Shown here piece by piece: positions 990-49,742 of a DNA stretch of 64,000 bases (positions within the stretch are counted from its first letter, which is position 1; each line of letters starts with the position of its first letter). The position numbers and the translations under genes are program-made. The DNA comes from a virus, in IMG/VR virus record IMGVR_UViG_3300047510_002187, positions 31,073-95,072 of that record, one strand, 5' to 3'. The notes under the pieces were generated by a model, which was given only the letters and a program-made list of their open reading frames with translations, was not told where the DNA came from and ran no database searches.

Positions 990-1036
990 AAACCGTCACA
1001 AGACCCTTCCCTTTCTCACTGATTTTCTGTTAAACT
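990..1036 (+). promoter_or_regulatory. intergenic promoter cassette (aaaCCGTCACA box, 30-nt spacer, -10-like TAAACT)
   Basis: Box 990-1000; fixed 30-nt spacing to the -10-like hexamer; member of a family of about 30 cassettes. Confidence 0.45.
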
Positions 1037-1058
1037 ACTACCAAGTAATTCAACTATT

Positions 1059-1919
1059 ATGACCGCACCTAAATCCCCTGTTGAACTTTCTGTTGATTTT
1101 AACACCAATCTGGATGCAATTCTTACTTATGTAAAAGAACCTATTACTGATAAAATTCAGGACTTTTTCAACACTCCTTCATTCAAGAAGTATTTTGGTT
1201 CCAAGAAAATCAATGAACTTGTGCCGTTCTATACTTCAGTCAATTATATCAATAACATTGCATTTGTAAATCAAGTGTGGAATGATGTTCCAGTAGATTA
1301 TTTCCAGACCTACGAAAAAATCCTGGAAATTTATGAACTCTACAACTGTGTAAAACCAGAAGTAAGGGACTGGATGAAAGACCAGATGACCTCTACGACT
1401 TTCCTGCATATGGTTCAAACTTATTATGATAAGGAAGGTCTCCAGAAGACAGACAATATAATTGCAGATACTTTCAAACAGATGGTTCAACTGGTTTCTC
1501 GTAAAGAAACCATCACTCGTCCTCGTCGTTGGAGGTTGGAAGAGTTCCACGACCATATGTCTCATCTTTATATTGTCTCTACCACAACCAATAAGGAACA
1601 TAAGAAAGAGTTCATTCCTCTACCGATTGAGAAGAACTCTTATAAAATCTATGAACCTAACGATACTCTGGAACTCACACTCTGGGGTAAGAGAGTGCGG
1701 AATTGTGTTGCATCTTATGAGGATAAAATCCTTGGAGAACGCAGTGCAATCTTCCTGATTGAGAAGGAGAACAAACCAACCTATACCTTTGAGTTGGACT
1801 ACAATGCACTCAAGAAAGGTCAGGTTCAGGTGAAACAGTGCGTGGGAATTGGTAACTCTTCAATTCCAGTTGAAGAACGCAAAGAGGTAGAGGAACTGAT
1901 TTCTTCTGTTGTTGGGTGA
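1059..1919 (+). CDS. hypothetical protein (286 aa)
   Basis: Long ORF immediately downstream of the cassette. Confidence 0.5.
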   Translation: MTAPKSPVELSVDFNTNLDAILTYVKEPITDKIQDFFNTPSFKKYFGSKKINELVPFYTSVNYINNIAFVNQVWNDVPVDYFQTYEKILEIYELYNCVKPEVRDWMKDQMTSTTFLHMVQTYYDKEGLQKTDNIIADTFKQMVQLVSRKETITRPRRWRLEEFHDHMSHLYIVSTTTNKEHKKEFIPLPIEKNSYKIYEPNDTLELTLWGKRVRNCVASYEDKILGERSAIFLIEKENKPTYTFELDYNALKKGQVQVKQCVGIGNSSIPVEERKEVEELISSVVG

Positions 1920-2071
1920 TGGAAGATACAGAAGAATTAATATTATTACTTCGTTTTGCTGTAAGTGAGCACTATTTTTATAGGTATTATGCACAGCATC
2001 ATTATAAATCAACAGAAGAAATCGTTCTCACTGCAAAAGCAATGGATTTTATTGAAGGTCTGGTGAGATAA
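1919..2071 (+). CDS. micro-ORF paralog A (50 aa) ending ..STEEIVLTAKAMDFIEGL
   Basis: Hand-translated; ATGA overlap with the upstream stop; shares the C-terminal STEEI.L.AKAM.F.E.L motif with three following micro-ORFs; below the 60-aa track cutoff. Confidence 0.4.
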   Translation: MEDTEELILLLRFAVSEHYFYRYYAQHHYKSTEEIVLTAKAMDFIEGLVR

Positions 2072-2232
2072 TGGAAAATGAAATCTTGTATTGGATAAAG
2101 TTAAAAAGTGATTTAATAAATTGTGCTTTATCTAAAAACTCATATTTTAGACATTATGCACTACATCATTATGCATCAACAGAAGAAATCATTTTACTAG
2201 CAAAAGCAATGAACTTCTTGGAGAGTTTATGA
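2071..2232 (+). CDS. micro-ORF paralog B (53 aa) ending ..STEEIILLAKAMNFLESL
   Basis: Hand-translated; TAATG overlap upstream, ATGA overlap downstream. Confidence 0.4.
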   Translation: MENEILYWIKLKSDLINCALSKNSYFRHYALHHYASTEEIILLAKAMNFLESL

Positions 2233-2447
2233 CCTACTATTTGTTTAAGAGTTTAATTCCTTATGTTAAACTTGAACGCACAAGAAAATGGTTGATGCAA
2301 CTTGCTACCTCCAGTTCTTATTTGAATAGGAAAATTGCAGAAAACCACCCACATTCAACAGAAGAAATCATATTAACAGTAAAGGCAAAGAGGTGGGTAG
2401 ATAGTTATTCATATAGGTCTCAATTAGTAATAGAAGATGACTATTAA
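2229..2447 (+). CDS. micro-ORF paralog C (72 aa) with STEEIILTVKAKRW motif
   Basis: ORF track; same motif family. Confidence 0.45.
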   Translation: MTYYLFKSLIPYVKLERTRKWLMQLATSSSYLNRKIAENHPHSTEEIILTVKAKRWVDSYSYRSQLVIEDDY

Positions 2448-2586
2448 AGAATTGATTTTGAAACTTGCATATTCTAAAAATTTCTATGATAGAAATCGTG
2501 CAATACATTTCTCTTATTGTTATCCGGATTTAGAAGAAACTGTTTATTTAAGAACAAAAGCAATGGATTTTGTGGAGACCTTATGA
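2437..2586 (+). CDS. micro-ORF paralog D (49 aa) ending ..EETVYLRTKAMDFVETL
   Basis: Hand-translated; stop overlaps the ATG of the next gene (ATGA at 2583). Confidence 0.4.
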   Translation: MTIKELILKLAYSKNFYDRNRAIHFSYCYPDLEETVYLRTKAMDFVETL

Positions 2587-3035
2587 ATAAGATACTCAAG
2601 TTTCTTAAACAGTGTTATTGGTTCTTGTGGTATTATGATTATGGTTTTACTTATTCCTTAAAAAGTCCATTAGACATTACGCACAATCCCAATTCATCAA
2701 CGAAAGAATTGGAAGTAATCTTCAGTAGATTAAATCACTTATCTTACATTCGTAGTTCTATTGCAAGGCATCCTAATGCATCTTCTAAAATCATAGAGGA
2801 AATTTATGAACTTAATACAGACCCACATTTGTATTATTTGATTGCAAACAATAGAAACACTAATGTAAAAGTCTTGGAAAATATTATATTTAAAATTAGT
2901 GATGTGTATTGGAATGTTGATAGACTACTTATTAAGAATAGAATTCTCCAACATCCTAACTGCACCGAAGACCTTGCCTTATTGATTAAAGCATATGAAT
3001 TTACAAGAAATTATATCTATTCCTTATCCAAGTGA
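2583..3035 (+). CDS. LRV-like repeat protein (151 aa; start revised from track 2517)
   Basis: ATG 2583 overlaps the stop of paralog D; the track's 5' extension reads through the paralog D C-terminus in another frame; motifs IARHPNASSKIIEEIY and ILQHPNCTEDLALLI. Confidence 0.45.
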   Translation: MNKILKFLKQCYWFLWYYDYGFTYSLKSPLDITHNPNSSTKELEVIFSRLNHLSYIRSSIARHPNASSKIIEEIYELNTDPHLYYLIANNRNTNVKVLENIIFKISDVYWNVDRLLIKNRILQHPNCTEDLALLIKAYEFTRNYIYSLSK

Positions 3036-3249
3036 AAATGAACTTCTTTATATTTTAGACAAAAGTAGTTCCGTAATGTCTTCGTTGGAAGAACTTAATA
3101 TTCTTGTGGATTATTGTTTTACGGATAAATTATGGAGTTACTTTGGAGCATTACTTGTCCAAAACATAAAAGAAAATCCTGCATGTGATGAAGAATTATT
3201 TTTGAAAATTAAATCACTTATTAGAGGAGATATTGAAGGATGGATTTAA
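2995..3249 (+). CDS. tandem paralog 1 of 3 (84 aa; SLEELNILVDYC...ENPACDEELFLKIKSL)
   Basis: ORF track; clear similarity to the next two ORFs. Confidence 0.5.
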   Translation: MNLQEIISIPYPSENELLYILDKSSSVMSSLEELNILVDYCFTDKLWSYFGALLVQNIKENPACDEELFLKIKSLIRGDIEGWI

Positions 3250-3497
3250 AAGAAATCTTACTTAAAGAATACATATCAATTAAAGAAGCAATATTCATTG
3301 GAGATAGAAGTCGTTATGGGTCTTCACTAGAGGAATTAAACCTTATTTTAAATTTTTGCGGTTCCAATGAAAGAGTAGGTTTAATTAGTACAGAAGGATT
3401 GTTAGAAAACCTCAAAAGAAATCCCGCAAGTGATGAGGAGTTACTTTTAAAAATCAAAGCACTTACTAAAGTGAATGAACTTACACGAAATCTTTAA
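3240..3497 (+). CDS. tandem paralog 2 of 3 (85 aa)
   Basis: SLEELNLILNFC...RNPASDEELLLKIKAL. Confidence 0.5.
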   Translation: MDLKEILLKEYISIKEAIFIGDRSRYGSSLEELNLILNFCGSNERVGLISTEGLLENLKRNPASDEELLLKIKALTKVNELTRNL

Positions 3498-3735
3498 TAA
3501 TCCAAATCCATCTTTTAGTGAGTTGTCTTATGTATATCAAAAAAGTTATTCTATGTTTTCTACAACAGAAGAACTGAATATTATTTTAGATTATTCATTT
3601 AAAAATCTAAAGAGTGTAACCGCAAGAACTTTCATTCAACATATCAGGGAAAACCCCGCAAGTGATGAGAATATACTTTTAAGAATTAAAGCAATGTTTT
3701 ATTACTACCGGACACTCTCCAAACCGTCACAATGA
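3475..3735 (+). CDS. tandem paralog 3 of 3 (86 aa); C-terminus reads through the promoter box
   Basis: TTEELNIILDYS...ENPASDENILLRIKAM. Confidence 0.5.
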   Translation: MNLHEIFNNPNPSFSELSYVYQKSYSMFSTTEELNIILDYSFKNLKSVTARTFIQHIRENPASDENILLRIKAMFYYYRTLSKPSQ

Positions 3736-3767
3736 CCTTGAGGTATCCAAGGAACCTGTGATACAAT
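3721..3767 (+). promoter_or_regulatory. promoter cassette (aaaCCGTCACA ... TACAAT)
   Basis: Box 3721-3731, hairpin ccttgaggtatccaagg, -10-like 3762-3767. Confidence 0.45.
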
Positions 3768-3791: not shown

Positions 3792-4250
3792 ATGATTGAT
3801 GCCTCGTTGATTGCACAACCTTCGTATTTGAAGAATTCTATTCTCAATCAAGTCATTGCAGTTGCAAAAGCATCTAATGCACCTAAAAAGATGGGTGCAA
3901 TTTTGTTGGATAAAAGAAATAAATTGATTTCTTCGGGCATTAATTCTTATGAGAACACGCATACTCAACAGTTTTATGCTGCAGTAATGGCGGCAAATAA
4001 GTATAAGGACAAGAGTTTGCGTCTCAAGACATATCTTCATTGTGAAATCAATTGTATCCTGAAAGCACAAAAACCTGGGAATAAACTTGTGATTTGTAGG
4101 GTGGGAGGTCACGGTGGTAATGATTTGAGAAATAGTTTCTGTTGTAGAATTTGCTACAACTACATCATTACCAATTGTCCTACAATTAAAGAAATTCATT
4201 GGAGCACTAATGACCAAGATTTTAAATACATTAAACTACAGGACACTTGA
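3792..4250 (+). CDS. dCMP deaminase-like zinc-dependent CDA-fold deaminase
   Basis: HCEINCI (H[AC]E motif) and CCRIC (PCxxC-like) zinc-ligand motifs; N-terminal region typical of dCMP deaminase; track start at 3786 is a TTG, first ATG is 3792. Confidence 0.55.
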   Translation: MIDASLIAQPSYLKNSILNQVIAVAKASNAPKKMGAILLDKRNKLISSGINSYENTHTQQFYAAVMAANKYKDKSLRLKTYLHCEINCILKAQKPGNKLVICRVGGHGGNDLRNSFCCRICYNYIITNCPTIKEIHWSTNDQDFKYIKLQDT

Positions 4251-4298
4251 GAAACCGTCACACTACCTCTTGTGGGGTGGTGGATTTTGTGTTATGAT
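4251..4298 (+). promoter_or_regulatory. promoter cassette (gaaaCCGTCACA, 30 nt, TATGAT)
   Basis: Near-identical copy at 16586-16633; leader ends aacttATGACTGAA. Confidence 0.5.
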
Positions 4299-7552: not shown

Positions 7553-7974
7553 TTTCAGTTCAATCAATAAAAGAGAATACTTATAAGAACAGTTTGTTCG
7601 GTGATTTGTATTTCTTTTCAATTCATCACATTACAAATAAACCAAACCGAGATGTTTTCAAAAATGTCTCATCTAAAATCACAACTGATGAAGGAATGAC
7701 TGCCTGGTATGAACACGATGCAATTCATTATCTTTCACAACAACCATTTAATGAAAATGGAGAGAAATGTGTAAAGTTTATTGAAAAAAATCTCTGGAGA
7801 GGGTGGTTGCCTCACGGAGAAGAATTTAATGCTTGGGTTCCTGTAGAATGTGAGTATTCTCATATTACTCAAGAACTCATCACTGAAACTGCAAGATTAA
7901 TTCAACAATATCAAGAGAATTGGAAATATGACCCAACTTATGATTGGTCTAAAAGATATAGTCCAACCACTTAA
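7510..7974 (+). CDS. hypothetical protein (154 aa)
   Basis: ORF track. Confidence 0.4.
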   Translation: MDEMCETYAQEIEVISVQSIKENTYKNSLFGDLYFFSIHHITNKPNRDVFKNVSSKITTDEGMTAWYEHDAIHYLSQQPFNENGEKCVKFIEKNLWRGWLPHGEEFNAWVPVECEYSHITQELITETARLIQQYQENWKYDPTYDWSKRYSPTT

Positions 7975-8021
7975 GAAACCGTCCACTCCGCACCTCACAG
8001 GTTCCTGTGGGGTGTTATAAT
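7975..8021 (+). promoter_or_regulatory. promoter cassette (gaaaCCGTCCAC ... TATAAT)
   Basis: Box variant plus TATAAT at 8016-8021. Confidence 0.45.
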
Positions 8022-11221: not shown

Positions 11222-11438
11222 AAGTGATAATTCAGTATTCCCTTATATTTGGGACGAAGAAATGGATATAATTATTGAGAAAAGTTGGAAAGAAATAAAA
11301 ACAGAATATAGCAATAAACCAAGTGATTTTGCATACTTTTCTATCGGATTTAAAGCAGCAGTATTAGAATTTAGAAAACAAGAGTTAGTCAAAAAACAAA
11401 AAGAGTTTAATGAACGACATGGAAAGAAAAATGACTGA
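11178..11438 (+). CDS. hypothetical protein
   Basis: ORF track; ends ..ND* in an ATGACTGA junction whose downstream ORF is only 5 codons (fossil start). Confidence 0.35.
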   Translation: MVISCDYCRSFRKMTSDNSVFPYIWDEEMDIIIEKSWKEIKTEYSNKPSDFAYFSIGFKAAVLEFRKQELVKKQKEFNERHGKKND

Positions 11439-11450
11439 AGACACCTGACT

Positions 11451-16584: not shown

Positions 16585-16585
16585 C

Positions 16586-39067: not shown

Positions 39068-39088
39068 AATCACGTAGACACAACCAAA

Positions 39089-39387: not shown

Positions 39388-40014
39388 ATGAACTATTACA
39401 CTTATGCTTATTTGAGAGAAGATCAAACGCCTTATTATATTGGTAAAGGTAAAAGAAATAGGATTTATTCTACATGTAAAAGAGTAAAACCACCCAAAGA
39501 TAAGTCACGAATCATCTTCCTCAAGCAAAACTTAACTGAAGAAGAAGCATTCAAGCACGAAATCTATATGATTGCTGTGTTTGGTAGAAAAGATTTGGGA
39601 ACTGGTATTCTTCATAATATGACTGATGGTGGTGATGGTATTTCTAATTGGGGAACTCCTGAACAAAGAAGTGAAATTACAAGAAAAGCAAATGCCAGTA
39701 GAACTCCTGAACAACGAAGTGAGGCAGCAAGAAAAAGACAAGCAAATAAAACTCCTGAACAAAGAAGTGAGGTAGCAAGAAAAGCAAGAGAAGTATATCT
39801 TTCTACAAGCACACCAGAACAACGAAGTGAGGTAGCAAGAAAAGCAAATGCCAGTAGAACTCCTGAACAACGAAGTGAGGTAGCAAGAAAAGCATCCTCA
39901 ATAAAATGGCAATGTACTGTAACTGGATTTATTACAAATGCTGGTTCTCTTTCGCATTATCAAAAAGCAAGAGGTATAGACACATCCAATAGAATAAGAT
40001 TGTCTTCTTATTGA
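39388..40014 (+). CDS. GIY-YIG homing endonuclease with five 48-nt NUMOD3-like repeats (TPEQRSEVARKA)
   Basis: YYTYAYL...PYYIGKGK; repeat array about 39660-39900; conserved C-terminal KWQCTVTGFITNAGSL..YQKARGIDTS. Confidence 0.65.
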   Translation: MNYYTYAYLREDQTPYYIGKGKRNRIYSTCKRVKPPKDKSRIIFLKQNLTEEEAFKHEIYMIAVFGRKDLGTGILHNMTDGGDGISNWGTPEQRSEITRKANASRTPEQRSEAARKRQANKTPEQRSEVARKAREVYLSTSTPEQRSEVARKANASRTPEQRSEVARKASSIKWQCTVTGFITNAGSLSHYQKARGIDTSNRIRLSSY

Positions 40015-40841
40015 ACTTCTGGATTGTATTCTTCTTCATAATACCAATAATAACCCATCCAACTATTCTTTCCTGGATTTAACACACTTTTCCGTAAACC
40101 ACCACCCGCTTTTCTTGATTCGCCAGTTAAATCGTAAGCAGCGGATCTCATGCTATCATATCTAACAATTTCTTCTGTTCGTTTATGGACACCTATTACT
40201 GGTCTTTTTGTTGGAGTCTGATCCAGTTTTTCCCACTTATATCCATATACAGTAAATCCTTCCTTTATTGATCTGCATATATTTCCACTATTTGCCACAT
40301 TTCCAGTAAGTTCTCTTGCACCTTCTCGCATACTATCAAATATAAACTCTTCTCCGGTTTCTAATTTAATCGCTTTCACTTTACGTTTTAATTTATCCGT
40401 ATTGCTATATTTTCCAGTAAGAATGCCCCATAGTTCTCCATTTTTAATTTTGTTCTTCAATGCTTTAGATACATTATTGGTCCATTCATCAGTTCTCTCC
40501 ACATTAGACATTCCATTGGATATTTTTATCTTATTTTCTTCTGCATGTTCAAAATGATCTCCACCTGAAGTAGCATTATATCCGTTGTGGTAAGTATCTA
40601 ACTTATTAACCCAATAAGTTTCTCTTTCATTTAATTTTTCTATAGGACATTCTTCTAGTATTCTTATCTTGAAAGAATCAGTACCGTATTTGTTTAATGC
40701 TCTGTAAAGAGGTCTGGTATTATACTTCTTAGATTCATATAAGTGCTCTTTCCATCTTTTGTTCAATTCATGTTTGGTTTGACCAATGTACTGTTTACCA
40801 TTGGAAATGTTTGTAATACAGTAAATCGTTCCTGTTTTCAT
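40008..40841 (-). CDS. GIY-YIG homing endonuclease (I-TevI/Seg-like); the only clear minus-strand gene
   Basis: GTIYCITNISNGKQYIGQT...RWKEH...YRALNKYG...ILEEC...ETYWVNKL...GYN; 3' end overlaps the 3' end of 39388 by about 7 nt. Confidence 0.7.
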   Translation of the reverse strand: MKTGTIYCITNISNGKQYIGQTKHELNKRWKEHLYESKKYNTRPLYRALNKYGTDSFKIRILEECPIEKLNERETYWVNKLDTYHNGYNATSGGDHFEHAEENKIKISNGMSNVERTDEWTNNVSKALKNKIKNGELWGILTGKYSNTDKLKRKVKAIKLETGEEFIFDSMREGARELTGNVANSGNICRSIKEGFTVYGYKWEKLDQTPTKRPVIGVHKRTEEIVRYDSMRSAAYDLTGESRKAGGGLRKSVLNPGKNSWMGYYWYYEEEYNPEVQ

Positions 40842-41633: not shown

Positions 41634-42020
41634 ATGTTTTCCATTGAAGAGTCTGAACTGATGATTGGTCTTATTGATCTCTTTGACAATAAGAATCTGG
41701 GTATTATGTTCAATGGTAAGAATGAACAGCTTGCCATTTCCATCAAAAGGAAACTGAATGAGCATAAGGAATCAGAAGAGACTAAGAGAATGAATCTCTT
41801 CTATTCTTATGTGTTCAGTTTCTATGGTAAGAGTGGCATCTATGATATGGGTGCAACAATGGATCAGATCATGGAAGCAACAGCAAAATATCTTAAGACT
41901 GAGAATGTTGACTTCTGTGGTGATTCTTACGATAGGGAAATAGTGAGGGATGTTATGATTCGTGATTATGGTCTTGTACCAGTTTCCAAACTGGCACATA
42001 AGACTCCACAAGCATCCTGA
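41634..42020 (+). CDS. hypothetical protein
   Basis: ORF track. Confidence 0.4.
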   Translation: MFSIEESELMIGLIDLFDNKNLGIMFNGKNEQLAISIKRKLNEHKESEETKRMNLFYSYVFSFYGKSGIYDMGATMDQIMEATAKYLKTENVDFCGDSYDREIVRDVMIRDYGLVPVSKLAHKTPQAS

Positions 42021-42056
42021 TCTCTGTTATCTTATTACTGTTCACATCAGAACCTC

Positions 42057-42475: not shown

Positions 42476-42700
42476 GTGGTCAGATTGTTCAGTGGCACAA
42501 GGGGTATTGTGTGGTTGGGTTCTGATGGGGTATATTTGATTCGTCCGCAAATCACCGACATGGACCCATTTGTTGCTGAACAGCAGATTGAAGAAGTCAT
42601 TCCTTATGATTGGGATGATGAAGAAACTAAGTTTGAAGTGGAAGATTATTATGATGATCTTGCCGCTGGTCTTCCCCTTGATTCCTCTTACGAATTCTGA
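42476..42700 (+). CDS. hypothetical acidic protein (start uncertain; alternative M at about 42560)
   Basis: ORF track. Confidence 0.3.
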   Translation: MVRLFSGTRGIVWLGSDGVYLIRPQITDMDPFVAEQQIEEVIPYDWDDEETKFEVEDYYDDLAAGLPLDSSYEF

Positions 42701-42934: not shown

Positions 42935-43132
42935 GTGGTCAATGATACCCTTTACTATGTTGGGTATGAAACTGAAGGTAATCCTTACATTTCTGATAAT
43001 GATGGTGGGCATTATGTTGATCTTAGTGTTGTTGATGGTGACATTGAGATTGACAGATGTTCTGTTTTCTTCACTGTCAATGGTGAACCTATCAGAATGC
43101 AGTTTCTTGAGATCATGGATCTTAAGGTGTGA
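42935..43132 (+). CDS. hypothetical protein
   Basis: ORF track. Confidence 0.3.
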   Translation: MVNDTLYYVGYETEGNPYISDNDGGHYVDLSVVDGDIEIDRCSVFFTVNGEPIRMQFLEIMDLKV

Positions 43133-43140
43133 CACATAAG

Positions 43141-43187
43141 AAACTGGCACATCAGACTTGACATAAGATCCTGATGTGCTGTAAGAT
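43141..43187 (+). promoter_or_regulatory. composite promoter: aaaCTGGCACA box plus TTGACA-18-TAAGAT
   Basis: Both promoter classes overlap here, at the left edge of the GC-rich island. Confidence 0.45.
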
Positions 43188-43407: not shown

Positions 43408-43661
43408 GTATGAATATGATTGTTATTAACCGCACATTTACAACTGAAGAATCTGAGGCGATTGCTAGCATTAGTGCTACCAGTCAGTCTGATCGGGTAG
43501 AACTTGCCTATCAGACCAATCCCGACAAAAGTTACACCTATGTCAGCACTTCTGGCAGTTTCGTAACTAAACTTAACGACACTCTTGCGCAGGGTGCTAG
43601 CGTTGGTTCGCTTGTCTTTAATGCTCGCCGTTCCGGTGAACTGAAGGAAGCGACAGTCTGA
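43404..43661 (+). CDS. hypothetical protein (GC-rich island)
   Basis: ORF track. Confidence 0.4.
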   Translation: MSMNMIVINRTFTTEESEAIASISATSQSDRVELAYQTNPDKSYTYVSTSGSFVTKLNDTLAQGASVGSLVFNARRSGELKEATV

Positions 43662-43670
43662 CACTTTGAC

Positions 43671-43716
43671 AGGTGGCACAAGGGCACTTGATTCCGGTCA
43701 GGTGCCCTGTTACATT
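43671..43716 (+). promoter_or_regulatory. promoter cassette (gTGGCACA, GC-rich hairpin agggcac/gtgccct, TACATT)
   Basis: Island version of the cassette. Confidence 0.4.
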
Positions 43717-43740: not shown

Positions 43741-44025
43741 ATGACTCGCTCCGAACAGATCCGCGAACTCTTTTCTACTCTAGGTTCTACCATTGTTTCT
43801 GTAGAGTTTGTGAAGCGTGATGGTACGCTTCGGAAGATTCGTTTTAATCCTAAAGATCGCCAGGAGATTGTGGGCACTGGTCGCCCTAGCAATAATCCTG
43901 ACATCTTCCGTGTTCGCGACTTTGATGTTGCGAAACGTGACGGAATCGGTGCATGGCGTTCCTTTGACGCTAACCGTGTGCGTCGGATTGCCTACCGTGG
44001 TCAAGTGCTGAACTGGACGGTCTGA
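43741..44025 (+). CDS. hypothetical protein (94 aa)
   Basis: ORF track. Confidence 0.45.
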   Translation: MTRSEQIRELFSTLGSTIVSVEFVKRDGTLRKIRFNPKDRQEIVGTGRPSNNPDIFRVRDFDVAKRDGIGAWRSFDANRVRRIAYRGQVLNWTV

Positions 44026-44027
44026 CC

Positions 44028-44073
44028 ACTGGCACAAGGGCACTCGCAAGGGTGCCCTCTCACCCCTTATACT
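44028..44073 (+). promoter_or_regulatory. promoter cassette (CTGGCACA, hairpin gggcac/gtgccc, TATACT, leader caagtcaacggg)
   Basis: Island version of the cassette. Confidence 0.45.
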
Positions 44074-44097
44074 GATCAAGTCAACGGGATTCCTCCG

Positions 44098-44853
44098 ATG
44101 CTGAACTTCTCCAAAGGCAACGCCAAACTTGGCACTCACACGCTGATCTTCAACCTGCCTGCAGGTAAGACATGCCCCGGTGCAATGTTTTGCAAGTCTT
44201 TTGCTGTCGTTGGTGACGACGGAAAGCGTAGGATTGTTGATGGCGAACACACTGAGTTTCGGTGTTTCGCTGCATCTTCTGAGGTGCAGTATGATGCTGT
44301 CTTCAACAATCGCGCCCGCAATCTGGAGTTGATTGTTGATGCTCTGCAGAACGGAACTGTCCCAGGTTACTCTGTCAGTGCTGCGGATCTTATCCACGAC
44401 AGCATCCAACATCATCGCACTAAGAAAACAGAATTGGTGCGCATTCATGAGTCTGGAGACTTCTTCTCTGGTGCGTATCTTGACGCATGGATTGAGGTTG
44501 CCCATCGCAATCCTGATCTTAAGTTCTACTGCTACTCTAAGAGTCTGCGGTTGTTTCTTAACTTCAAGTTGCCCAGTAACTTCTACATGACCGCATCGTA
44601 TGGTGGTCGGTTTGATTACCTGATCGACGAAGGTTACTTCCCACGTTATAGCAAAGTCTGCATGAATGATGCGGACGCTGAACGTCTGGGTCTGGAAGTT
44701 GACCACGATGATTCACACTGCTTCGGTGATAAACCGTTCGCTTTGCTTGTGCATGGCACGCAACCGAAAGGTTCAGAATGGGGCGCCGCAATCCGTGCCC
44801 GTCGTTCTAACAAACAGTTCGGAGGTTACAGTAAGAAAACTGTGACGGTCTGA
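44098..44853 (+). CDS. conserved-looking Cys-rich protein (251 aa), function unknown
   Basis: N-terminal SKGNAKLG...TCPGAMFC motif. Confidence 0.45.
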   Translation: MLNFSKGNAKLGTHTLIFNLPAGKTCPGAMFCKSFAVVGDDGKRRIVDGEHTEFRCFAASSEVQYDAVFNNRARNLELIVDALQNGTVPGYSVSAADLIHDSIQHHRTKKTELVRIHESGDFFSGAYLDAWIEVAHRNPDLKFYCYSKSLRLFLNFKLPSNFYMTASYGGRFDYLIDEGYFPRYSKVCMNDADAERLGLEVDHDDSHCFGDKPFALLVHGTQPKGSEWGAAIRARRSNKQFGGYSKKTVTV

Positions 44854-44855
44854 CC

Positions 44856-44900
44856 ACTGGCACACTAGGGGGTGACAGGATCACCCCCATGCCCTACAAT
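44856..44900 (+). promoter_or_regulatory. promoter cassette (CTGGCACA, hairpin gggggtgac/atcaccccc, TACAAT) with leader tctcagttcaccacagaac
   Basis: Island version of the cassette. Confidence 0.45.
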
Positions 44901-44925
44901 TCTCTCAGTTCACCACAGAACTCCC

Positions 44926-45084
44926 ATGGCAAAACTCTTTAAGATCGCCAAGTTTGAGAACGAAAACTTCAAGATTCTGGAAACTTTCGGCACCTATGAT
45001 GATGCTGATGATCGGTATGATTATTGGGCAGAACGCTATCCTAACGCATGGGTAGAGATCTTAGACCCAACCGATGAAGTCTGA
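44926..45084 (+). CDS. hypothetical small protein (52 aa; start revised)
   Basis: First ATG after the conserved leader; the track's 5' extension covers the promoter. Confidence 0.4.
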   Translation: MAKLFKIAKFENENFKILETFGTYDDADDRYDYWAERYPNAWVEILDPTDEV

Positions 45085-45093
45085 TTCTTATAA

Positions 45094-45120
45094 AGAACCC
45101 TTCGGGGTTCTTTTTTATTC
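45094..45120 (+). terminator. rho-independent terminator
   Basis: gaacccc-ttcg-ggggttc followed by T6. Confidence 0.65.
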
Positions 45121-45139
45121 TTTTGTAATAATTATAATA

Positions 45140-45300
45140 AAGAAGGGTAAGTGGCGACCTTTTATGTCATCAGAGCGACCCTGCTCCTCATTCCGTTGTC
45201 CCCATAGTATAGGGCATGATGGGGGTCTGCTGTGCCACCTGAGGACGGTTTGGGCAGTGGCACAATCCTGGTTGCTGGGGTGGGTTCCCCCGTGGCATAC
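45140..45300 (+). repeat. conserved non-coding element, copy A (divergent)
   Basis: agggtaagtg...tcatca...ccgttgtccccatagtatagggcatgatgggg...ggtctgctgtgcca...gtttggg shared with copies at 46600, 47540 and 49020. Confidence 0.4.
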
Positions 45301-45361
45301 TATGTGCATCGGCGGGAGGGAAACACCCCGACCGCCAGCAAACCCAATCCCAGAGTCTACC

Positions 45362-45889
45362 ATGCCTGCCGCCACTGCTCTCAACTTTGACGGTTTCAAC
45401 GACGATCAGATGCGTGCCCTTATGGTGCTCATGCAGCAACACATGGAGCAGCGTAAGGTTTCTTTTGATGATCAGGTTTCTTCTGTTCAGCAACAGCGTT
45501 ATGATGAGCGCATGAAAGAAATCGGACAAAATGTTGCTGTGATTGAAACAACGAACGCAGCGTTTGAGGTTTGCCTGAATGAGATCCTGGGCGACATTGA
45601 TGAGTCGCGTTGGATTGTTTCTCAACTTGACAAGTGCCGCCGGATGAATGACTTCCGCCACTTCATCCCCGTTTACTTCAAGTATCGCGGAAAGGATCTT
45701 AAGATCGAAGAACTGTTGCGCACTCTTGCCGCAATCTATCGCCTCAAAATGAAGAACTATAATAATCCTGCAGATAAGTCCAAGGATCGTGCTATCGTTC
45801 GGCATGAAATCCGTTGCCCTCACTGTGGCGAATACGCTACACGTTTGGTGGAGTATCTTGAGATCAAGGGCATCCGTTGGGCGGACTGA
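45362..45889 (+). CDS. hypothetical protein with a C-terminal CPHCGEY zinc ribbon
   Basis: Start at the ATG after the cassette; the track's 5' extension covers non-coding sequence. Confidence 0.45.
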   Translation: MPAATALNFDGFNDDQMRALMVLMQQHMEQRKVSFDDQVSSVQQQRYDERMKEIGQNVAVIETTNAAFEVCLNEILGDIDESRWIVSQLDKCRRMNDFRHFIPVYFKYRGKDLKIEELLRTLAAIYRLKMKNYNNPADKSKDRAIVRHEIRCPHCGEYATRLVEYLEIKGIRWAD

Positions 45890-45900
45890 GATAAGGAATA

Positions 45901-45925
45901 GGGGGCAATCTTATGCCCCCTTTCC
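45901..45925 (+). terminator. rho-independent terminator
   Basis: gggggc-aatcttat-gccccc followed by tttcc. Confidence 0.5.
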
Positions 45926-45954
45926 TATCATAAGAGATCCTTATCAGAAAACCC

Positions 45955-45981
45955 TTGACATAAGATCCCACACCGTATAAG
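45955..45981 (+). promoter_or_regulatory. sigma70-like promoter TTGACA-15-TATAAG preceded by CATAAGAGATCC
   Basis: Shares ttgacataagatcc with 43158. Confidence 0.4.
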
Positions 45982-46009
45982 ATTATCTCAGTTCACCACC
46001 TGAACCACA

Positions 46010-46198
46010 ATGTCTCTCACACAACTGGTAAGAACTTACGCAACTTGCTGTAAGTTGGAAGACAAAGATAAAGATCCAAAGGATCAAATCTCCTGGGTTC
46101 TTTACAATCATCAGGAAATGGTTTTGATTCATGGTCAACCTCAGATTCTAAAGTCTTGGGAGATTGCTGGAGCGTTTCGGAGACTGTTTGCAAAGTGA
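46010..46198 (+). CDS. hypothetical protein (62 aa)
   Basis: Follows the leader tctcagttcaccacctgaaccacaATG. Confidence 0.45.
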   Translation: MSLTQLVRTYATCCKLEDKDKDPKDQISWVLYNHQEMVLIHGQPQILKSWEIAGAFRRLFAK

Positions 46199-46260
46199 CC
46201 ACCAAAGGGGACCGGGAACGGTCCCCATGCCCTAGAATCCTCTCAGTTCACCACTGAACC

Positions 46261-46404
46261 ATGCGACGCCTCCCTAACATCCTCCTGATCGGTTCCCTGC
46301 TCTACATTGGCAGCGGTCTGGGTTTGTCTGCCCTTCAGGTTGCCAAGGCACATGCCGACCGGGTTGCTGTTACGATCTGTGAAGCATCCCGCGACTGCCG
46401 CTGA
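46261..46404 (+). CDS. small secreted/membrane peptide (47 aa)
   Basis: Hand-translated after the leader ctctcagttcaccactgaaccATG; hydrophobic N-terminus. Confidence 0.35.
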   Translation: MRRLPNILLIGSLLYIGSGLGLSALQVAKAHADRVAVTICEASRDCR

Positions 46405-46444
46405 TCGTCTGCTACACTATCTGCAGTTCACCACCGAACCTCTC

Positions 46445-46564
46445 ATGATCTTTGATCTGAAACAGCAAATTGAAGAGCAAGGATACATCATTATCAGCGA
46501 CATGAGCGATGATGAACTTGCCGAACTCTTCCAAGTTATGATAAACGACGAAGAGGAATCATGA
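46445..46564 (+). CDS. acidic mini-protein (39 aa)
   Basis: Follows the leader ctgcagttcaccaccgaacctctcATG; the track's 5' extension is rejected. Confidence 0.3.
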   Translation: MIFDLKQQIEEQGYIIISDMSDDELAELFQVMINDEEES

Positions 46565-46570
46565 ATAATT

Positions 46571-46598
46571 GGGAGAGGCAAATCCTCTCCCTTTTTTT
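46571..46598 (+). terminator. rho-independent terminator
   Basis: gggagagg-caaat-cctctccc followed by T7. Confidence 0.65.
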
Positions 46599-46599
46599 A

Positions 46600-46760
46600 T
46601 ACTTTTGTTGTTATTATTTGCGTGCAGGGTAAGTGTCTTGTTTTGTATCATCACGGCGCCCCCGTTCGTTTCATTGTCCCCATAGTATAAGGCATGGATG
46701 GGGTCAGGTGTGGGGTCTGGTGTGCCAGTTTGGGAACTGGTCAGGAGTGGTTGCCTGGTG
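46600..46760 (+). repeat. conserved non-coding element, copy B
   Basis: tatactt...cagggtaagtgtcttgttttgtatcatcacggcgcccccgttc...gtccccatagtataaggcatggatgggg. Confidence 0.45.
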
Positions 46761-46803
46761 GCATCCCATGCCCTATGATTCTTTCAGTTCACACGAACAC
46801 CCC

Positions 46804-47109
46804 ATGCTTTCCAGCATCATCCGCACCAGCATCCGCTCCCACCTGATTCAGACCGGTTCTAAGACCTGCTCCGAACTGGTGCGGGATCTGGGACTGGACC
46901 CGAAGCGTCACAAGGGCACCATCCATGCCCTGATGGTGGACATGGAGGATGCAGGCATCCTGAGCGCCACCCGTAGCGCCAATGGCAAGCGTCACAAGTG
47001 GGAAATGGTTCCCACCGCGATCCGCAAGCGGGACCGCCTGGTCGCTGCTATCCTGGTCCGGTCTGACCAATCCGACCAATCCGACCAATCCGACCAATCC
47101 GACAACTGA
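46804..47109 (+). CDS. winged-helix/HTH-like putative transcription regulator with a C-terminal (SDQ)x4 repeat
   Basis: TCSELVRDLGLDPKRHKGTIHALMVDMEDAGIL; start after the conserved leader. Confidence 0.4.
   Translation: MLSSIIRTSIRSHLIQTGSKTCSELVRDLGLDPKRHKGTIHALMVDMEDAGILSATRSANGKRHKWEMVPTAIRKRDRLVAAILVRSDQSDQSDQSDQSDN
47065..47100 (+). repeat. 9-bp tandem repeat gaccaatcc x4
   Basis: Direct reading; encodes SDQSDQSDQSDQ. Confidence 0.8.
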
Positions 47110-47177
47110 CACACCGGGGGGTTGCGAAACCCCCCCTCCCCCTGCTATCTTAGATCTGTTCCTGAGGGATTCACCCC

Positions 47178-47498
47178 ATGCGAGTCATCGAACGCAAAAT
47201 GAACAAAGCGATTTCCAATCGTTACGATTGGAAATCTGCAAACACTCGTGTAGAGTATGAAGCAGGAAATGAGATCTCACGAGTGTTTCTTTATGGAAAC
47301 CTGATCGCTGAGATTGGAGAAGGTTTCCTGAAACTTTATGATGGCGGACATCAGACAACCACCACAAAGTCCCGCCTGAATGCTATTCTTTCTGAGAATG
47401 GTTGCGGTGATAAGAAAGTCTATCAGAAAGACTTTCAATGGAAGATCAAACATGATGGAATTGTGGAGGATTTTGTATCAGGAATGATTCTTCGCTGA
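47178..47498 (+). CDS. hypothetical protein
   Basis: ORF track. Confidence 0.4.
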   Translation: MRVIERKMNKAISNRYDWKSANTRVEYEAGNEISRVFLYGNLIAEIGEGFLKLYDGGHQTTTTKSRLNAILSENGCGDKKVYQKDFQWKIKHDGIVEDFVSGMILR

Positions 47499-47507
47499 TT
47501 ATAACTT

Positions 47508-47536
47508 ATGGGGGCAGAAATGCCTCCATTTTTTTA
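47508..47536 (+). terminator. rho-independent terminator
   Basis: gggggca-gaaa-tgcctcc followed by T7. Confidence 0.6.
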
Positions 47537-47539
47537 TAC

Positions 47540-47700
47540 TTAAGATCCTATTATTTACGAGCAGGGTAAGTGTCTTGTTTTGTATCATCGCGGCGCCCCC
47601 GCTCTTCTTCGCTTGTGAGACAATCATAGCACCCCATCAGACCCCAGCGTGGCATCAGGTGGACAGTCTGAGCGGTGGCACAAGACCCCTTGGCAGGATG
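47540..47700 (+). repeat. conserved non-coding element, copy C
   Basis: tatactt...gagcagggtaagtgtcttgttttgtatcatcgcggcgcccccgctcttcttc. Confidence 0.45.
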
Positions 47701-47768
47701 CCTCCCTGTCGGTTATGGTAGTTTCAACGACGGGCACCGCTCTACATTCCCCCCCGTCGCCTAAGATC

Positions 47769-48098
47769 ATGAACTCCCCCGCCTTCCCCCCCGCTGATGC
47801 TCTGATCGCTCATCTTAAGAGCATTAACTATCAGAAACATTTCAACAACTACATGGACACGGTAGAAACCGTGTGCCTCACAATCGCCGCCATTGTTTAT
47901 GTCATCTTCAAGAAAACACAAGAATGGTATCAGAATGGTGGCAAAGATGCTACCCTTCAGATTATCAAGAAAGTTTGGAACTTTCTTTCAGTTTCTTATA
48001 CTTGGGTGCGCTGTGAGGTTTATCCTGCAGTGATTAAGTTTCTGGAGAATGTGTCAGAAACTTATGGCGCCTGGCGTGACCTTGTGACAGTCGCCTAG
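47769..48098 (+). CDS. membrane protein (1 TM), start revised
   Basis: TVCLTIAAIVYVIF hydrophobic segment. Confidence 0.4.
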   Translation: MNSPAFPPADALIAHLKSINYQKHFNNYMDTVETVCLTIAAIVYVIFKKTQEWYQNGGKDATLQIIKKVWNFLSVSYTWVRCEVYPAVIKFLENVSETYGAWRDLVTVA

Positions 48099-48163
48099 GT
48101 GTCCACTGGGGGCAGCGATCCTGCCCTCTCATGCCCTACACTGTATCCAGTCGCAACCAACCC

Positions 48164-48337
48164 ATGCAGACACCGATGAGGATTGAGGTTCGCTATCAAG
48201 TCCCCTACGGGGACTGCCAGTGGCGCTCCCAGTGGTTCCCCACTGTTCAGGAGGCGCAGCGTATGGTAGGATTTTATCGCTCCTGCGGATCGCCCGCCCA
48301 CATCGCCCCCAGCAGCATGGCACAGTTCCAACGCTGA
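48164..48337 (+). CDS. hypothetical small protein
   Basis: Start after the leader. Confidence 0.35.
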   Translation: MQTPMRIEVRYQVPYGDCQWRSQWFPTVQEAQRMVGFYRSCGSPAHIAPSSMAQFQR

Positions 48338-48384
48338 AACTGTCACAAGGGGGGACACCGATCCCCCCTCCCATGCCCTACAAT
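48338..48384 (+). promoter_or_regulatory. promoter cassette (aaaCTGTCACA, hairpin gggggga/tcccccc, TACAAT, leader tctttcagttcaccacccgaac)
   Basis: Island version of the cassette. Confidence 0.45.
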
Positions 48385-48412
48385 TCTTTCAGTTCACCAC
48401 CCGAACCGCACC

Positions 48413-48661
48413 ATGTTCTCCACTCTCACCTTCCGCGATCATAGTCTCAAAGGTGCTACAATCGCTCAGCGTACCTTTGACAATGGTTGGGGAGTTTCTG
48501 TAGTTTCTGGACCCGAAGGTTCCGGTCTTAAGGGTACAATCGGGCAGGATACTTTTGAGGTGGCAATTATACGCCCAAGCGGCAACATGCTGGATGAAAT
48601 TATGCCATGGCAGACTCCGGTGCAGGTATCCAGTCTCATGCGCCTAGTTTCCATGCTGTGA
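48413..48661 (+). CDS. hypothetical protein
   Basis: ORF track. Confidence 0.4.
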   Translation: MFSTLTFRDHSLKGATIAQRTFDNGWGVSVVSGPEGSGLKGTIGQDTFEVAIIRPSGNMLDEIMPWQTPVQVSSLMRLVSML

Positions 48662-48671
48662 CGGTTTGTGA

Positions 48672-48717
48672 ACCTGCACAAGGGGAGGCGACAGGATGCC
48701 TCCCCATGCCCTACAAT
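48672..48717 (+). promoter_or_regulatory. promoter cassette (CTGCACA variant, hairpin gggaggc/gcctccc, TACAAT)
   Basis: Leader gacaagtcaaccaaaggg. Confidence 0.4.
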
Positions 48718-48745
48718 GGACAAGTCAACCAAAGGGAGAACCCCG

Positions 48746-48967
48746 ATGACCCAGATCACCACTGAGACCTGCTTTGATGATGCCAACTTCCCCGCCTGGT
48801 GGAACGAAGCATACGACTACATCATGGGCGATAGTTACATCGAGCACATCATGGGATGCCCCGATGATGGTTGGTGCCTTGATTGTCTGGTTGATTCCTA
48901 CAACAAAGGGATGACACCTAGCGCCGCTGTCAATGAAGCGGTGGACGGTTACGATCCCACCCCCTGA
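48746..48967 (+). CDS. hypothetical Cys-containing protein
   Basis: Start after the leader. Confidence 0.4.
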   Translation: MTQITTETCFDDANFPAWWNEAYDYIMGDSYIEHIMGCPDDGWCLDCLVDSYNKGMTPSAAVNEAVDGYDPTP

Positions 48968-48976
48968 GTATAATCA

Positions 48977-49004
48977 ACCGGAGGCAGAAATGCCTCCTTT
49001 TTTT
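48977..49004 (+). terminator. rho-independent terminator
   Basis: ggaggca-gaaa-tgcctcc followed by T7. Confidence 0.65.
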
Positions 49005-49019
49005 ATACTTTATGAACCA

Positions 49020-49110
49020 TTATTTGCAGGCAGGGTAGGTTACTTGTTTTGTATCATCGCGGCGCCCCCGCTCTTCTTCCGTTGTGTCCATAGTCTAGCG
49101 CATCATGGGC
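49020..49110 (+). repeat. conserved non-coding element, copy D
   Basis: caggcagggtaggttacttgttttgtatcatcgcggcgcccccgctcttcttccgttgtgtccatagtctagcgcatcatgggcg. Confidence 0.45.
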
Positions 49111-49222
49111 GCCACCGTGGCATTGTGACTCATTGTGACTGATAAGCGTTGCTGATCGTTCGGGGGTTGACGCGGGCACCGATCCGTGGGATTCTATAGG
49201 GGTCAACACGCGACACTCCGCT

Positions 49223-49411
49223 ATGGCACTCAACATCACCCCCCGCTTCTACGCCCGCCTGCAGCACGGGTTCTCAATGGAGGCGAAGTTTGAGACCCCG
49301 ACGATGGCAGCGGCGGCAGCAACCGCCCTCGCTCCTGTTCTGGGGTATCTCCCGGTTGTAGAGTGCTACGTCAACGGTCAGTGGATCCGGTATGATCAGA
49401 TGACCGCCTGA
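49223..49411 (+). CDS. hypothetical protein
   Basis: ORF track. Confidence 0.35.
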   Translation: MALNITPRFYARLQHGFSMEAKFETPTMAAAAATALAPVLGYLPVVECYVNGQWIRYDQMTA

Positions 49412-49445
49412 GATCCTCTAGGGGACCCACAGCGGGTCCCCCGCC

Positions 49446-49670
49446 ATGCTACGATCCACAAGCAATCAACGCACCGCCATGATCATCCGCACGCCCAGCA
49501 TCCTGCGCCGCGCTTTCTACGTTTCGATCAACACCCGCGCCCGCCTGCGGGATGAGGTGCTCGCCGTGAGCATCGGCAGCGCCTACCTGGGCGTCAACCG
49601 CCTGAGCGATTCCGACATCGGCGGGTTTGAAATCGTCTGGGGCATCCTGCCGGATTCCGAGGCATTGTGA
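49446..49670 (+). CDS. hypothetical protein
   Basis: Follows the cassette (TACGAT). Confidence 0.35.
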   Translation: MLRSTSNQRTAMIIRTPSILRRAFYVSINTRARLRDEVLAVSIGSAYLGVNRLSDSDIGGFEIVWGILPDSEAL

Positions 49671-49742
49671 ACAAAGGTTACGGGGCACCCTCCGGGGTGC
49701 CCTCCGCCATGCTACAATTCCAGAGTCAACCGCAAGCGAACC

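Follow-up and report, generated by a model that had tools for sequence, protein, structure and literature searches.

The window examined in this study, a stretch of 64,000 nt corresponding to positions 31,073 to 95,072 of the IMG/VR virus record IMGVR_UViG_3300047510_002187, contains a family of about 37 regulatory cassettes dispersed among its small open reading frames (ORFs). Each is assembled from a two-fold symmetric upstream element, an optional terminator-like hairpin and a -10 box. The cassettes are best explained as promoters of the cyanomyovirus early class that would be used by the host RNA polymerase with the assistance of a putative dimeric factor and that would carry a terminator or 3'-end hairpin in the spacer. 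We give this reading a probability of about two in three, and we infer the transcript starts, timing class, binding factor, termination and recombination from the DNA itself. An earlier interpretation made from the letters alone (the sequence-only reading) had proposed promoter cassettes in this region. The family is real and well defined and the promoter reading is correct in its anatomy, with several details amended, among them a resemblance to CRP-family sites, a hairpin in every copy and membership of the promoter early stem-loop (PeSL) group, none of which was sustained.

The repeat family is present far above chance. The pattern CYGKCACA-N30-TANNNT matches the window 14 times, always on the + strand, against 0.11 expected, and 14 matches were reached by none of 100 shuffles; the box CCGTCACA is present 11 times against 0.76 expected. 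Inspection of the results of a position-weight scan gave a catalogue of 35 cassettes with a recognizable box, 33 on the + strand, where they are spread over 1–49 kb of small ORFs, and 2 on the - strand, to which one copy with a degenerate box (7963–8021) and one without a box (49664–49718) are added. The positions given as examples in the sequence-only reading (4251, 8016, 11451, 16586, 17963, and 22024) each coincide with a catalogued copy. Between the end of the box and the -10 box there are 30 nt in 18 of the 35 copies, 29 nt in 6, 31 nt in 7, 28 nt in 2, and 32 and 33 nt in one each, that is, 29–31 nt in 31 of them. Some copies form subfamilies that are nearly identical from the box through the first codons, namely 4239/16574/11437, 35967/36341, and 44841/48324/48657. 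The description of the cassettes as intergenic was too strict, because several overlap the 3' end of the upstream ORF.

The box and the GACACTT motif that often precedes it are the two half-sites of a single 24-bp imperfect dyad, TGTG(A/C)C(A/G)STT-N4-AASYGKCACA. The box is thus conserved, as had been claimed, but by itself it is only the better-conserved half of this dyad, and GACACTT is the distal half. Each half fits TGTG(A/C)C(A/G)(G/C)TT, the proximal one being read on the opposite strand; a minus-strand scan matches the same places as the plus-strand scan, and a search for symmetry axes identifies a single axis and a 24-nt element. The proximal half-site is nearly invariant (33 of 35 copies) and, as AAaCYGKCACA, ends 30 ± 1 nt ahead of the -10 box, whereas the distal half-site is weak in the AT-rich part of the window and nearly perfect in the GC-rich island at 44–52 kb. 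Relative to the predicted start the dyad extends from about -66 to -43 and is centered near -54.5. The claim that the box occupies an activator position holds to the extent that a conserved upstream element lies at an activator-like place; its center is not that of a canonical class I site. The two halves do not covary (195 complementary cells as compared with 213 ± 7 when the left halves are permuted among copies), so the symmetry reflects recognition of two like half-sites and not base pairing. An RNA or DNA stem was rejected for this reason, and the dyad is predicted to be a protein recognition site. At 45206–45303, one dyad serves -10 boxes on both sides. A third half-site within the spacer, as in the LysR-like layout of regulatory and activation binding sites (RBS+ABS), was sought and showed no positional enrichment.

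All copies have a -10 box of the form TAnnnT, the T, A, and T being invariant by selection. A G at -14 and a T at -15 are independently enriched, and about half of the copies have a TGn extended -10. At exactly 7 nt past the -10 hexamer, 33 of the 35 copies have a purine (p ~1e-7), which is the signature expected of a start site, and the R-T signal of this region recurs in 131 IMG/VR cassettes among the matches listed. The next start codon follows 21–28 nt past the -10 box, 33 of the 35 copies are on the coding strand, with cassette strand matching that of the genes, and the stop codon of the upstream ORF lies mostly 1–15 nt ahead of the box, within the dyad. The entire intergenic space, about 75 nt, is thus taken up by the cassette, whose distal half-site is partly coding. 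A generic scan for sigma-70 promoters was uninformative (74 sites as compared with 81 expected). Past the -10 box the column information is low, and the leader motifs AGTCAAC, GTTCACCAC, and ATGACTGAA are common only within subfamilies, so that the conserved leader described earlier does not extend to the family as a whole. One leader is shared by the cassettes at 27181 and 45241 (27240–27290 and 45305–45355) and one IMG/VR cassette; its stem covaries (GTCGG/CCGAC, GTCAG/CTGAC, GGCGG/CCGCC), its loop, GAGGGAAAC(A/G)CC, hardly varies, and its A-rich tail ends in CC(C). It may represent a small pseudoknotted cis-regulatory RNA. Rfam yielded no family for the window at gathering thresholds and, for the two conserved leaders, none at E <= 1.

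The spacer folds at a free energy (dG) <= -8 kcal/mol in 22 of the 35 copies as compared with 4.5% of random 30-mers, and about 18 of the folding spacers are better than 95% of their own shuffles. The remaining 11–13 spacers are unstructured and tend to be C/T-rich, in disagreement with the statement that the intervening sequence always forms a hairpin. Several hairpins of the AT-rich part lead into a T-run that reaches the extended -10, as in CACTACCTC-ttgt-GGGGTGGTG GATTTTGTGT. A consensus terminator scan had its four best matches in 1–20 kb at cassettes and found a GC-rich stem directly followed by a T-run in the copies at 4261, 11459, 16596, 17980, 23358, and 35337. Folding is more stable for the sense strand than for its complement in 16 of 24 copies (26 G-U pairs; Wilcoxon p = 0.05), a bias that mildly favors a role in the RNA of read-through transcripts over a DNA cruciform. 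That the hairpins on either side of the gene at 36050–36352 are exact reverse complements of each other was borne out by sequence comparison: the 21-nt hairpins at 35997–36017 and 36371–36391 are related in this way inside otherwise near-identical cassettes, and from this arrangement the hairpin appears to be flipped about its own stem. A hexamer resembling a -35 box (>= 4/6 matches) is located 16–18 nt from the -10 box in 17 of the 35 copies, as compared with about 11% by chance. These hexamers (TTGACA, TTTACA, TTGAGA, TTGGCA, and similar) often fall within the hairpin loop, and the column information at the -35 position is low.

These features can be combined in a mechanism in which the host RNA polymerase with its primary sigma factor would bind the -10 box and initiate about 7 nt past it. 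A putative dimeric DNA-binding protein on the dyad (about -66 to -43) would provide the upstream contact that the poor -35 region cannot, and this protein would be host-encoded or delivered with the virion if the promoters fire immediately after injection. The 30-nt spacer would be largely free in sequence, with a hairpin in two thirds of the copies, which, once transcribed in the sense direction, would serve the upstream unit as a terminator or 3'-end hairpin, ending or stabilizing its transcript. Since the hairpin would end the upstream unit and the promoter would start the next, one module of about 75 nt could do both. The small-gene region served by these promoters is presumably early. At copies that are near-identical from the box to the first codons, ORFs are likely to be exchanged by homologous recombination, as has been proposed for PeSLs.

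The window encodes a T4 gp6-type baseplate wedge protein (ORF 54655–56577; Pfam) that is closest to those of Synechococcus phages B23 and B3 (59% identity), followed by Prochlorococcus phage P-TIM68 (56%), with further relatives in S-SM2, Bellamy, and other cyanomyoviruses. No nucleotide-level (megablast) match to the window was found among 50,697 phage records. The kinship of gp6 and the lack of a nucleotide match indicate that the window derives from an uncultured member of the Kyanoviridae and is, by its protein sequence, part of a T4-like cyanomyovirus. The cassettes occupy a hyperplastic region at 1–53 kb with about 150 small + strand ORFs, of which only about 17 have a Pfam match, and this region terminates at the gp25/gp6 baseplate module.

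Other phages were scanned with a composite scorer combining position weight matrices for the dyad and for the -10 region with a spacer of 28–32 nt. Syn9 has nine matches, all on the coding strand and just upstream of ORFs; they precede gp61, gp73, gp75, gp78, gp79, gp90/91, the gp32-like ssb, gp150, and gp183. Their dyads begin at 1132, 44774, 48558, 49078, 51000, 51211, 52996, 127492, and 148742, and the transcription starts predicted for them are 65–68 nt further on, the sum of the dyad (24 nt), the spacer (28–31 nt), and 13 nt. There are 13 matches in the 50 kb before gp25/gp6 of B23 and 7 in 64 kb of P-TIM40, where they are located in a block of small ORFs (48.9–56.3 kb) before the baseplate genes, one being the minus-strand side of a dyad at 52466 and the others being on the coding strand directly upstream of ORFs. 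No match was obtained in 50 kb of T4 or in shuffled genomes. The dyad and its spacing from the -10 box are kept across phages, and the spacers, hairpins, and leaders have wholly diverged. The hairpins of the B23 cassettes consist of a canonical stem and T-run, and at the orthologous genes for the CCA-adding enzyme a cassette is present in both the window and B23 with a hairpin (and T-run) in B23 alone, from which the hairpin can be regarded as a separable module. In the P-TIM40 cassettes at 48.9–56.3 kb, the spacer has the motif ACACTACC at the -35 position in place of TTGACA, and the spacer of the 4239-type cassettes of the window opens with the same letters (cACACTACC). In Syn9, gp73 is annotated as starting at 48608, upstream of the -10 box (48611–48616) of its cassette (48558–48645); judged from this layout, the in-frame ATG at 48641, 24 nt past the -10 box, is more likely to be the start.

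The perfect dyad, scanned as TGTGMCAGT-N6-ACTGKCACA, occurs at at least 120 loci in IMG/VR. Among the matches listed, TAnnnT peaks 28–31 nt from the dyad, at which distance it is found on 148 of the 188 sides with a -10 box, both sides of the dyad are served by a -10 box in 30 of 138 cases, and dozens of the loci carry homologues of the gp6 of the window and of neighboring genes. In 596 Gb of bacterial and archaeal genomes there were 68 loci with a perfect dyad, as compared with about 35 estimated by chance. A perfect dyad of the form TGTGACAGTT-N4-AACTGTCACA is found at conserved intergenic sites in Nostocales (Nodularia, Anabaena, Fischerella, Pelatocladus, and Westiellopsis) and in many Acidobacteria, where it may be the operator of a putative bacterial regulator of like specificity; at three of these bacterial sites, the flanking genes give no hint of a regulator. 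Three contigs with the dyad that are binned as bacteria resemble cyanophage fragments.

In 2016, Doron and colleagues reportedly described a novel regulatory element that controls the transcription of early genes in Syn9 and likewise in P-TIM40; elements of this type are reported to be abundant in T4-like cyanophages and metagenomes. The cassettes of the window come from the same phage family and have the same setting, in blocks of small ORFs upstream of the baseplate module, and their dyad-N28–31-TAnnnT design is identical in the Syn9 and P-TIM40 genomes, just upstream of small ORFs. Because exactly this design is present in both genomes, the cassettes and the reported element are likely to be the same, a view that we hold with good confidence. 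The family in the window is thus most probably a further case of an early-promoter class of cyanomyoviruses that has already been reported; the details that may be new are the dyad symmetry, the placement of the hairpin within the spacer with a residual -35 in the loop, and the bidirectional use.

PeSL cassettes occur in the T4-type phages RB49/phi1, T4/PST, and KVP40/nt-1 (PMC2839356, PMC4122927) and comprise an AT-rich tract, a stem-loop, and a near-consensus pair of sigma-70 -35 and -10 boxes about 17 nt apart (PMC4122927). Like them, the cassettes of the window are composites of promoter and stem-loop that are repeated in hyperplastic regions and reach the Shine-Dalgarno sequence and start codon, and their near-identical direct-repeat copies, which bracket the ORF at 36050–36352, could mediate exchange of small ORFs. 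In contrast to PeSLs, the stem-loop in the window sits between the dyad and the -10 box, over the -35 position, there is a GC-containing dyad in place of the AT-rich tract, a -35 is lacking or weak, and T4 has no match. The likeness to PeSLs that had been noted therefore holds as a functional analogy (promoter with terminator-like hairpin, hyperplastic region, ORF bracketing) and fails in the geometry. Some spacer hairpins are GC-rich with a T-run, as in intrinsic (Rho-independent) terminators, and resemble the stand-alone terminators at 24298 and 32469; unlike intrinsic terminators, they overlap a promoter, and the T-run doubles as the extended -10 region.

The combination of a -10 box with a dyad at fixed distance and little -35 is also found in activator-dependent cyanobacterial promoters lacking a -35, such as those of NtcA, and in CRP class I/II promoters, from which the cassettes differ in the half-sites, the half-site spacing, and a center near -54.5 and not at -41.5 or -61.5. 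The NtcA site is GTA-N8-TAC centered at -41.5; this pattern occurs 10 times in the window, but no cassette dyad has that form. The resemblance of the box to a CRP-family half-site did not hold up, since TGTGA-N6-TCACA, the 22-bp dyad of CRP/FNR sites, occurs 0 times in the window and the TGTGA and TCACA ends of the cassette dyad are 14 nt apart. A sigma-54 promoter (expected as TGGCAC-N5-TTGC, -24/-12) was likewise rejected: TGGCAC-N4-6-TTGC occurs 0 times in the window and the box CCGTCACA lacks the GG. Sigma-54 is not known from cyanobacteria.

A number of observations weigh against the proposal of early promoters assisted by a dimeric factor. The left half-site passes a 5-bit threshold in only 8 of the 35 copies and the distal half-site overlaps the last codons of the upstream gene; with a left half that is weak and partly coding, dimer binding is less secure here than in Syn9, in P-TIM40, or in the GC-rich island. 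The center of the dyad at -54.5 is neither the canonical class I nor the class II position. A usable -35 or TGn is present in about half of the copies, which may be able to dispense with a factor. No perfect dyad was found in any Synechococcus or Prochlorococcus genome of the bacterial and archaeal scan, so there is no host regulon to point to, and a Pfam search of 150 window ORFs identified a classical transcription factor in none of them, only antitoxin-like and Rho_N-like fragments. The hairpins of the GC-rich island lack a T-run, with 1–2 T in the tail, and are better described as 3'-end hairpins than as terminators, and the asymmetry between sense and antisense folding is only marginal.

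The alternatives that deserve most weight dispense with an activator, and we regard each of them as unlikely. The dyad might be the operator of a phage-encoded repressor that shuts this promoter class off later, with the promoters firing unaided. A symmetric site is as fitting for a repressor as for an activator, a -35-like hexamer or an extended -10 is present in half of the copies, and temporal shut-off of early genes is general in T4-like phages. However, the dyad lies wholly upstream of the -35 region and ends at about -43, where a bound protein would not occlude the polymerase, the half of the copies without -35 and TGn would be very weak if unaided, and the Pfam search of the 150 ORFs revealed no repressor-like gene. 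Marginally less probable than a repressor is a family of plain sigma-70 promoter-terminator modules of the PeSL type in which the box has no protein partner and is a hitch-hiking segment or one that supplies homology for recombination, kept because recombination spreads and homogenizes the cassette. The near-identity of subfamilies from the box to the first codons and the same -35-like or TGn elements would fit this explanation, as would the documented occurrence of PeSLs in T4-like phages (PMC4122927). Against it, the dyad alone is constant among phages with core proteins only 50–59% identical (Syn9, P-TIM40, B23, and IMG/VR), its distance from the -10 box is kept to ± 1 nt, and it has two-fold symmetry with no covariation; homogenization within one genome is an insufficient explanation of this constancy, spacing, and symmetry.

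Two further explanations remove the promoter from the center of the argument. If the box and hairpin acted in RNA, in 3'-end formation, processing, or stability of the upstream transcripts, and the -10-like box were separate or incidental, the upstream stop codon 1–15 nt ahead of the box in most copies, the greater stability of the hairpins in the sense strand, and the T-runs of several copies would be accounted for. This is improbable given that the dyad halves do not covary, that the third of the copies without a hairpin retain the box and the exact TAnnnT spacing, that the dyad is found in both orientations with a -10 box on either side, and that the conserved purine 7 nt past the -10 box is a feature of start sites. 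Even more remote is the idea that ORF modules are moved by a site-specific recombinase or homing endonuclease acting on the dyad. The window does contain genes for GIY-YIG and HNH endonucleases, cassettes bracket single ORFs, and a hairpin loop is inverted between two neighboring copies, but this inversion concerns the hairpin and not the dyad, Pfam identified no recombinase among the 150 ORFs, and the fixed phase with the -10 box, the gene orientation, and the start-site purine are unexpected of a recombination site. The preferred reading, of factor-assisted early promoters, can be extended to a more specific model in which a putative dimeric factor, encoded by the host or brought in with the virion, would recruit cyanobacterial RNA polymerase to -35-poor promoters across the Kyanoviridae, the hairpin would be an independently evolving and flippable terminator module, often with the residual -35 in its loop, and the composite activator-dependent cassette, distinct from PeSLs in architecture, would shuttle ORFs between cyanophages that differ widely in G+C. 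Extrapolating this far from the cassette sequences, we offer the model as tentative and, taken as a whole, doubtful.

The individual cassettes are described below from left to right; they are on the + strand except where stated, the gap is the distance from box to -10, and folding energies of hairpins are given in parentheses in kcal/mol. The first cassette, 977–1036, has its dyad at 977–1000, the box CCGTCACA, a 30-nt spacer with no hairpin, and a -10 of TAAACT, giving a predicted transcription start at 1043. The same box with a gap of 30 is found at 3708–3767, with a weak hairpin (-5.0), a -35-like TTGAGG, and TACAAT as -10, and at 4239–4298, where a terminator-like hairpin CACTACCTC/GGGGTGGTG is followed by GATTTTGTGT and the -10 TATGAT and where the TGA stop of the upstream ORF falls within the dyad. 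The copy at 7963–8021 has the degenerate box CCGTCCAC, a 29-nt spacer with the hairpin CCTCACA/TGTGGGG, and a -10 of TATAAT. At 11437–11496, the box is CTGGCACA and the gap 30, with a hairpin and T tail, a -35-like TTGAGA, and the -10 TATCAT. The cassette at 16574–16633 (CCGTCACA, gap 30, hairpin and T tail, -10 TATGAT) is nearly the same as the 4239 copy through ATGACTGAA. Box CCGTCACA recurs at 17951–18010 (gap 30, hairpin then TTTTGTGT, -10 TATAGT), 18931–18989 (gap 29, hairpin (-10.9), -10 TAGGAT), and 22011–22070 (gap 30, hairpin (-8.5), -10 TATAAT). A 12-bp hairpin (-18.7) separates the box CTGACACA from the -10 TATTCT at 23331–23390 (gap 30). The cassette at 24058–24116 has box CTGTCACA, a gap of 29, no hairpin, and the -10 TATAAT, and that at 27181–27238 has box CTGGCACA, a gap of 28, a hairpin (-10.6), and a -10 of TATTCT followed by a conserved GGGAAACACC leader. 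Upstream of the ThiF-like gene, at 29752–29810, the dyad reads TGTGCCAGT..CTGACACA, with a gap of 29, no hairpin, and TATTAT as -10.

Box CTGTCACA is shared by the cassettes at 30930–30989 (gap 30, hairpin then TTTAT, -35-like TTTACA in the loop, -10 TAAACT), 33197–33257 (gap 31, no hairpin, -35-like TTTACA, -10 TATGAT), and 33504–33561 (gap 28, hairpin (-9.5), -10 TATCAT). Neither of the next two copies, both with box CTGGCACA and a gap of 30, has a hairpin: 33728–33787, upstream of the CCA-adding enzyme gene, has the -10 TACAAT, and 35080–35139 has TATTCT and the leader AAGTCGTCAAGG. At 35312–35371, the box CTGGAACA is followed, with a gap of 30, by a hairpin GGACACTTG/CAGGTGTCC and TTTGT, the loop containing a -35-like TTGATT, and by the -10 TATAAT. 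The left bracket of ORF 36050–36352 is the cassette at 35967–36026, with the hairpin CCTCCCAGGTGCTCCGGGAGG (-18.6) and the -10 TATGAT, and the right bracket is that at 36341–36400, with the hairpin CCTCCCGGAGCACCTGGGAGG and the -10 TATACT; both have the box CCGTCACA and a gap of 30. The cassette at 39074–39132 has box GTGGCACA, a gap of 29, no hairpin, the -10 TATTCT, and the leader AAGTAGTCAAGG. The dyad at 41975–42033, TGTACCAGTTTC/..CTGGCACA, is 10/12 symmetric and the best of the AT-rich part; its gap is 29, with no hairpin and the -10 TATCTT. A weaker cassette at 42476–42536 has box GTGGCACA, a gap of 31, no hairpin, and the -10 TATATT. At 43128–43187 (box CTGGCACA, gap 30), a perfect -35 TTGACA is 18 nt from the -10 TAAGAT, and at 43657–43716 (box GTGGCACA, gap 30) a 12-bp hairpin (-19.8) with TTGATT in its loop precedes the -10 TACATT and the leader GTTCACCAC.

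The GC-rich island begins its series with 44013–44073, upstream of the GP88-family gene, which has box CTGGCACA, a gap of 31, a hairpin (-16.3), the -10 TATACT, and the leader AAGTCAAC, and with 44841–44900, which has the near-perfect dyad TGTGACGGTCTGACCACTGGCACA, a gap of 30, a hairpin (-15.8), the -10 TACAAT, and the leader TCAGTTCACCAC. In the bidirectional unit at 45206–45303, one dyad (45241–45264) is accompanied by TACTAT as -10 on the + side (gap 33) and TATACT on the - side (gap 29). The cassette at 46684–46744 is on the - strand, with box CTGGCACA, a gap of 31, and the -10 TATACT followed by ATGGGGACAA and by no long ORF. The minus-strand cassettes (45199–45264 and 46677–46744) have the -10 TATACT and the following ATGGGGACAA in common, and, having no long ORF downstream, the two may drive tiny ORFs or small or antisense RNAs. 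On the + strand, 47090–47151, upstream of the Kyano_Gp96 gene, has box CTGACACA, a gap of 32, a hairpin (-16.6), and the -10 TATCTT, and 47659–47719 has box GTGGCACA, a gap of 31, a hairpin (-9.2), a -35-like TTGGCA, and the -10 TATGGT. At 48083–48142, the left half TGTGACAGT is intact and the right half is degenerate (GTGTCCAC), with a gap of 30, a hairpin (-14.0), and the -10 TACACT. The cassettes at 48324–48384 (box CTGTCACA, hairpin (-15.3), leader TCAGTTCACCAC) and 48657–48717 (left half TGTGACGGTTTG, right half CCTGCACA, hairpin (-18.6), leader AAGTCAAC) both have a gap of 31 and the -10 TACAAT. The last copy, the box-less 49664–49718, retains a hairpin GGGGCACCC/GGGTGCCC at 49682–49702, the -10 TACAAT at 49713–49718, and the leader AGTCAAC, with the ATG at 49743.

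The segment at 44–52 kb has a G+C content of 49–58% as compared with about 35% elsewhere in the window and carries the Kyanoviridae genes PF23790 Kyano_Gp96 and PF17338 GP88. Its cassettes (44000–52000) are adapted to the higher G+C and their dyads are near-perfect, and in composition the island looks like a block taken from a higher-G+C cyanophage, promoters included. Elsewhere in the region, three neighboring genes at 27638–30546 on the + strand encode a Prok-JAB protein (345 residues), a 362-residue protein that matches nothing in Pfam or PHROG, and a ThiF/E1-like protein (237 residues). Such a set for ubiquitin-like conjugation and deconjugation (Prok-JAB and ThiF/E1-like) is unusual for a cyanophage. 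Genes for an SPFH/Band 7 protein (31601–32413), a CCA-adding tRNA nucleotidyltransferase (33812–34543), a GIY-YIG endonuclease (40008–40841, - strand), and an HNH endonuclease (52008–52487) are also present; no tRNA genes were found within the window. No relative close enough for an analysis of insertions and deletions was found, the best identity in IMG/VR being about 80% over <1 kb.

T4-like cyanophages lack Alt, ModA/B, MotA, and AsiA, the proteins with which T4 reprograms early and middle transcription (PMC2984593), and therefore need another device for early transcription. How the first cyanophage genes are launched in Synechococcus and Prochlorococcus is the mechanistic question that this family addresses. 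It offers about 37 natural variants of one design, which differ in whether they have a hairpin or a -35, are set in two G+C backgrounds, and include one bidirectional unit; the conserved 24-bp dyad is a bait for pull-down of the factor, and the variants form a natural mutational series for reporter assays. The cassettes also allow transcription units to be annotated in contigs of uncultured cyanophages from sequence alone, and they suggest places at which ORFs are exchanged within hyperplastic regions.

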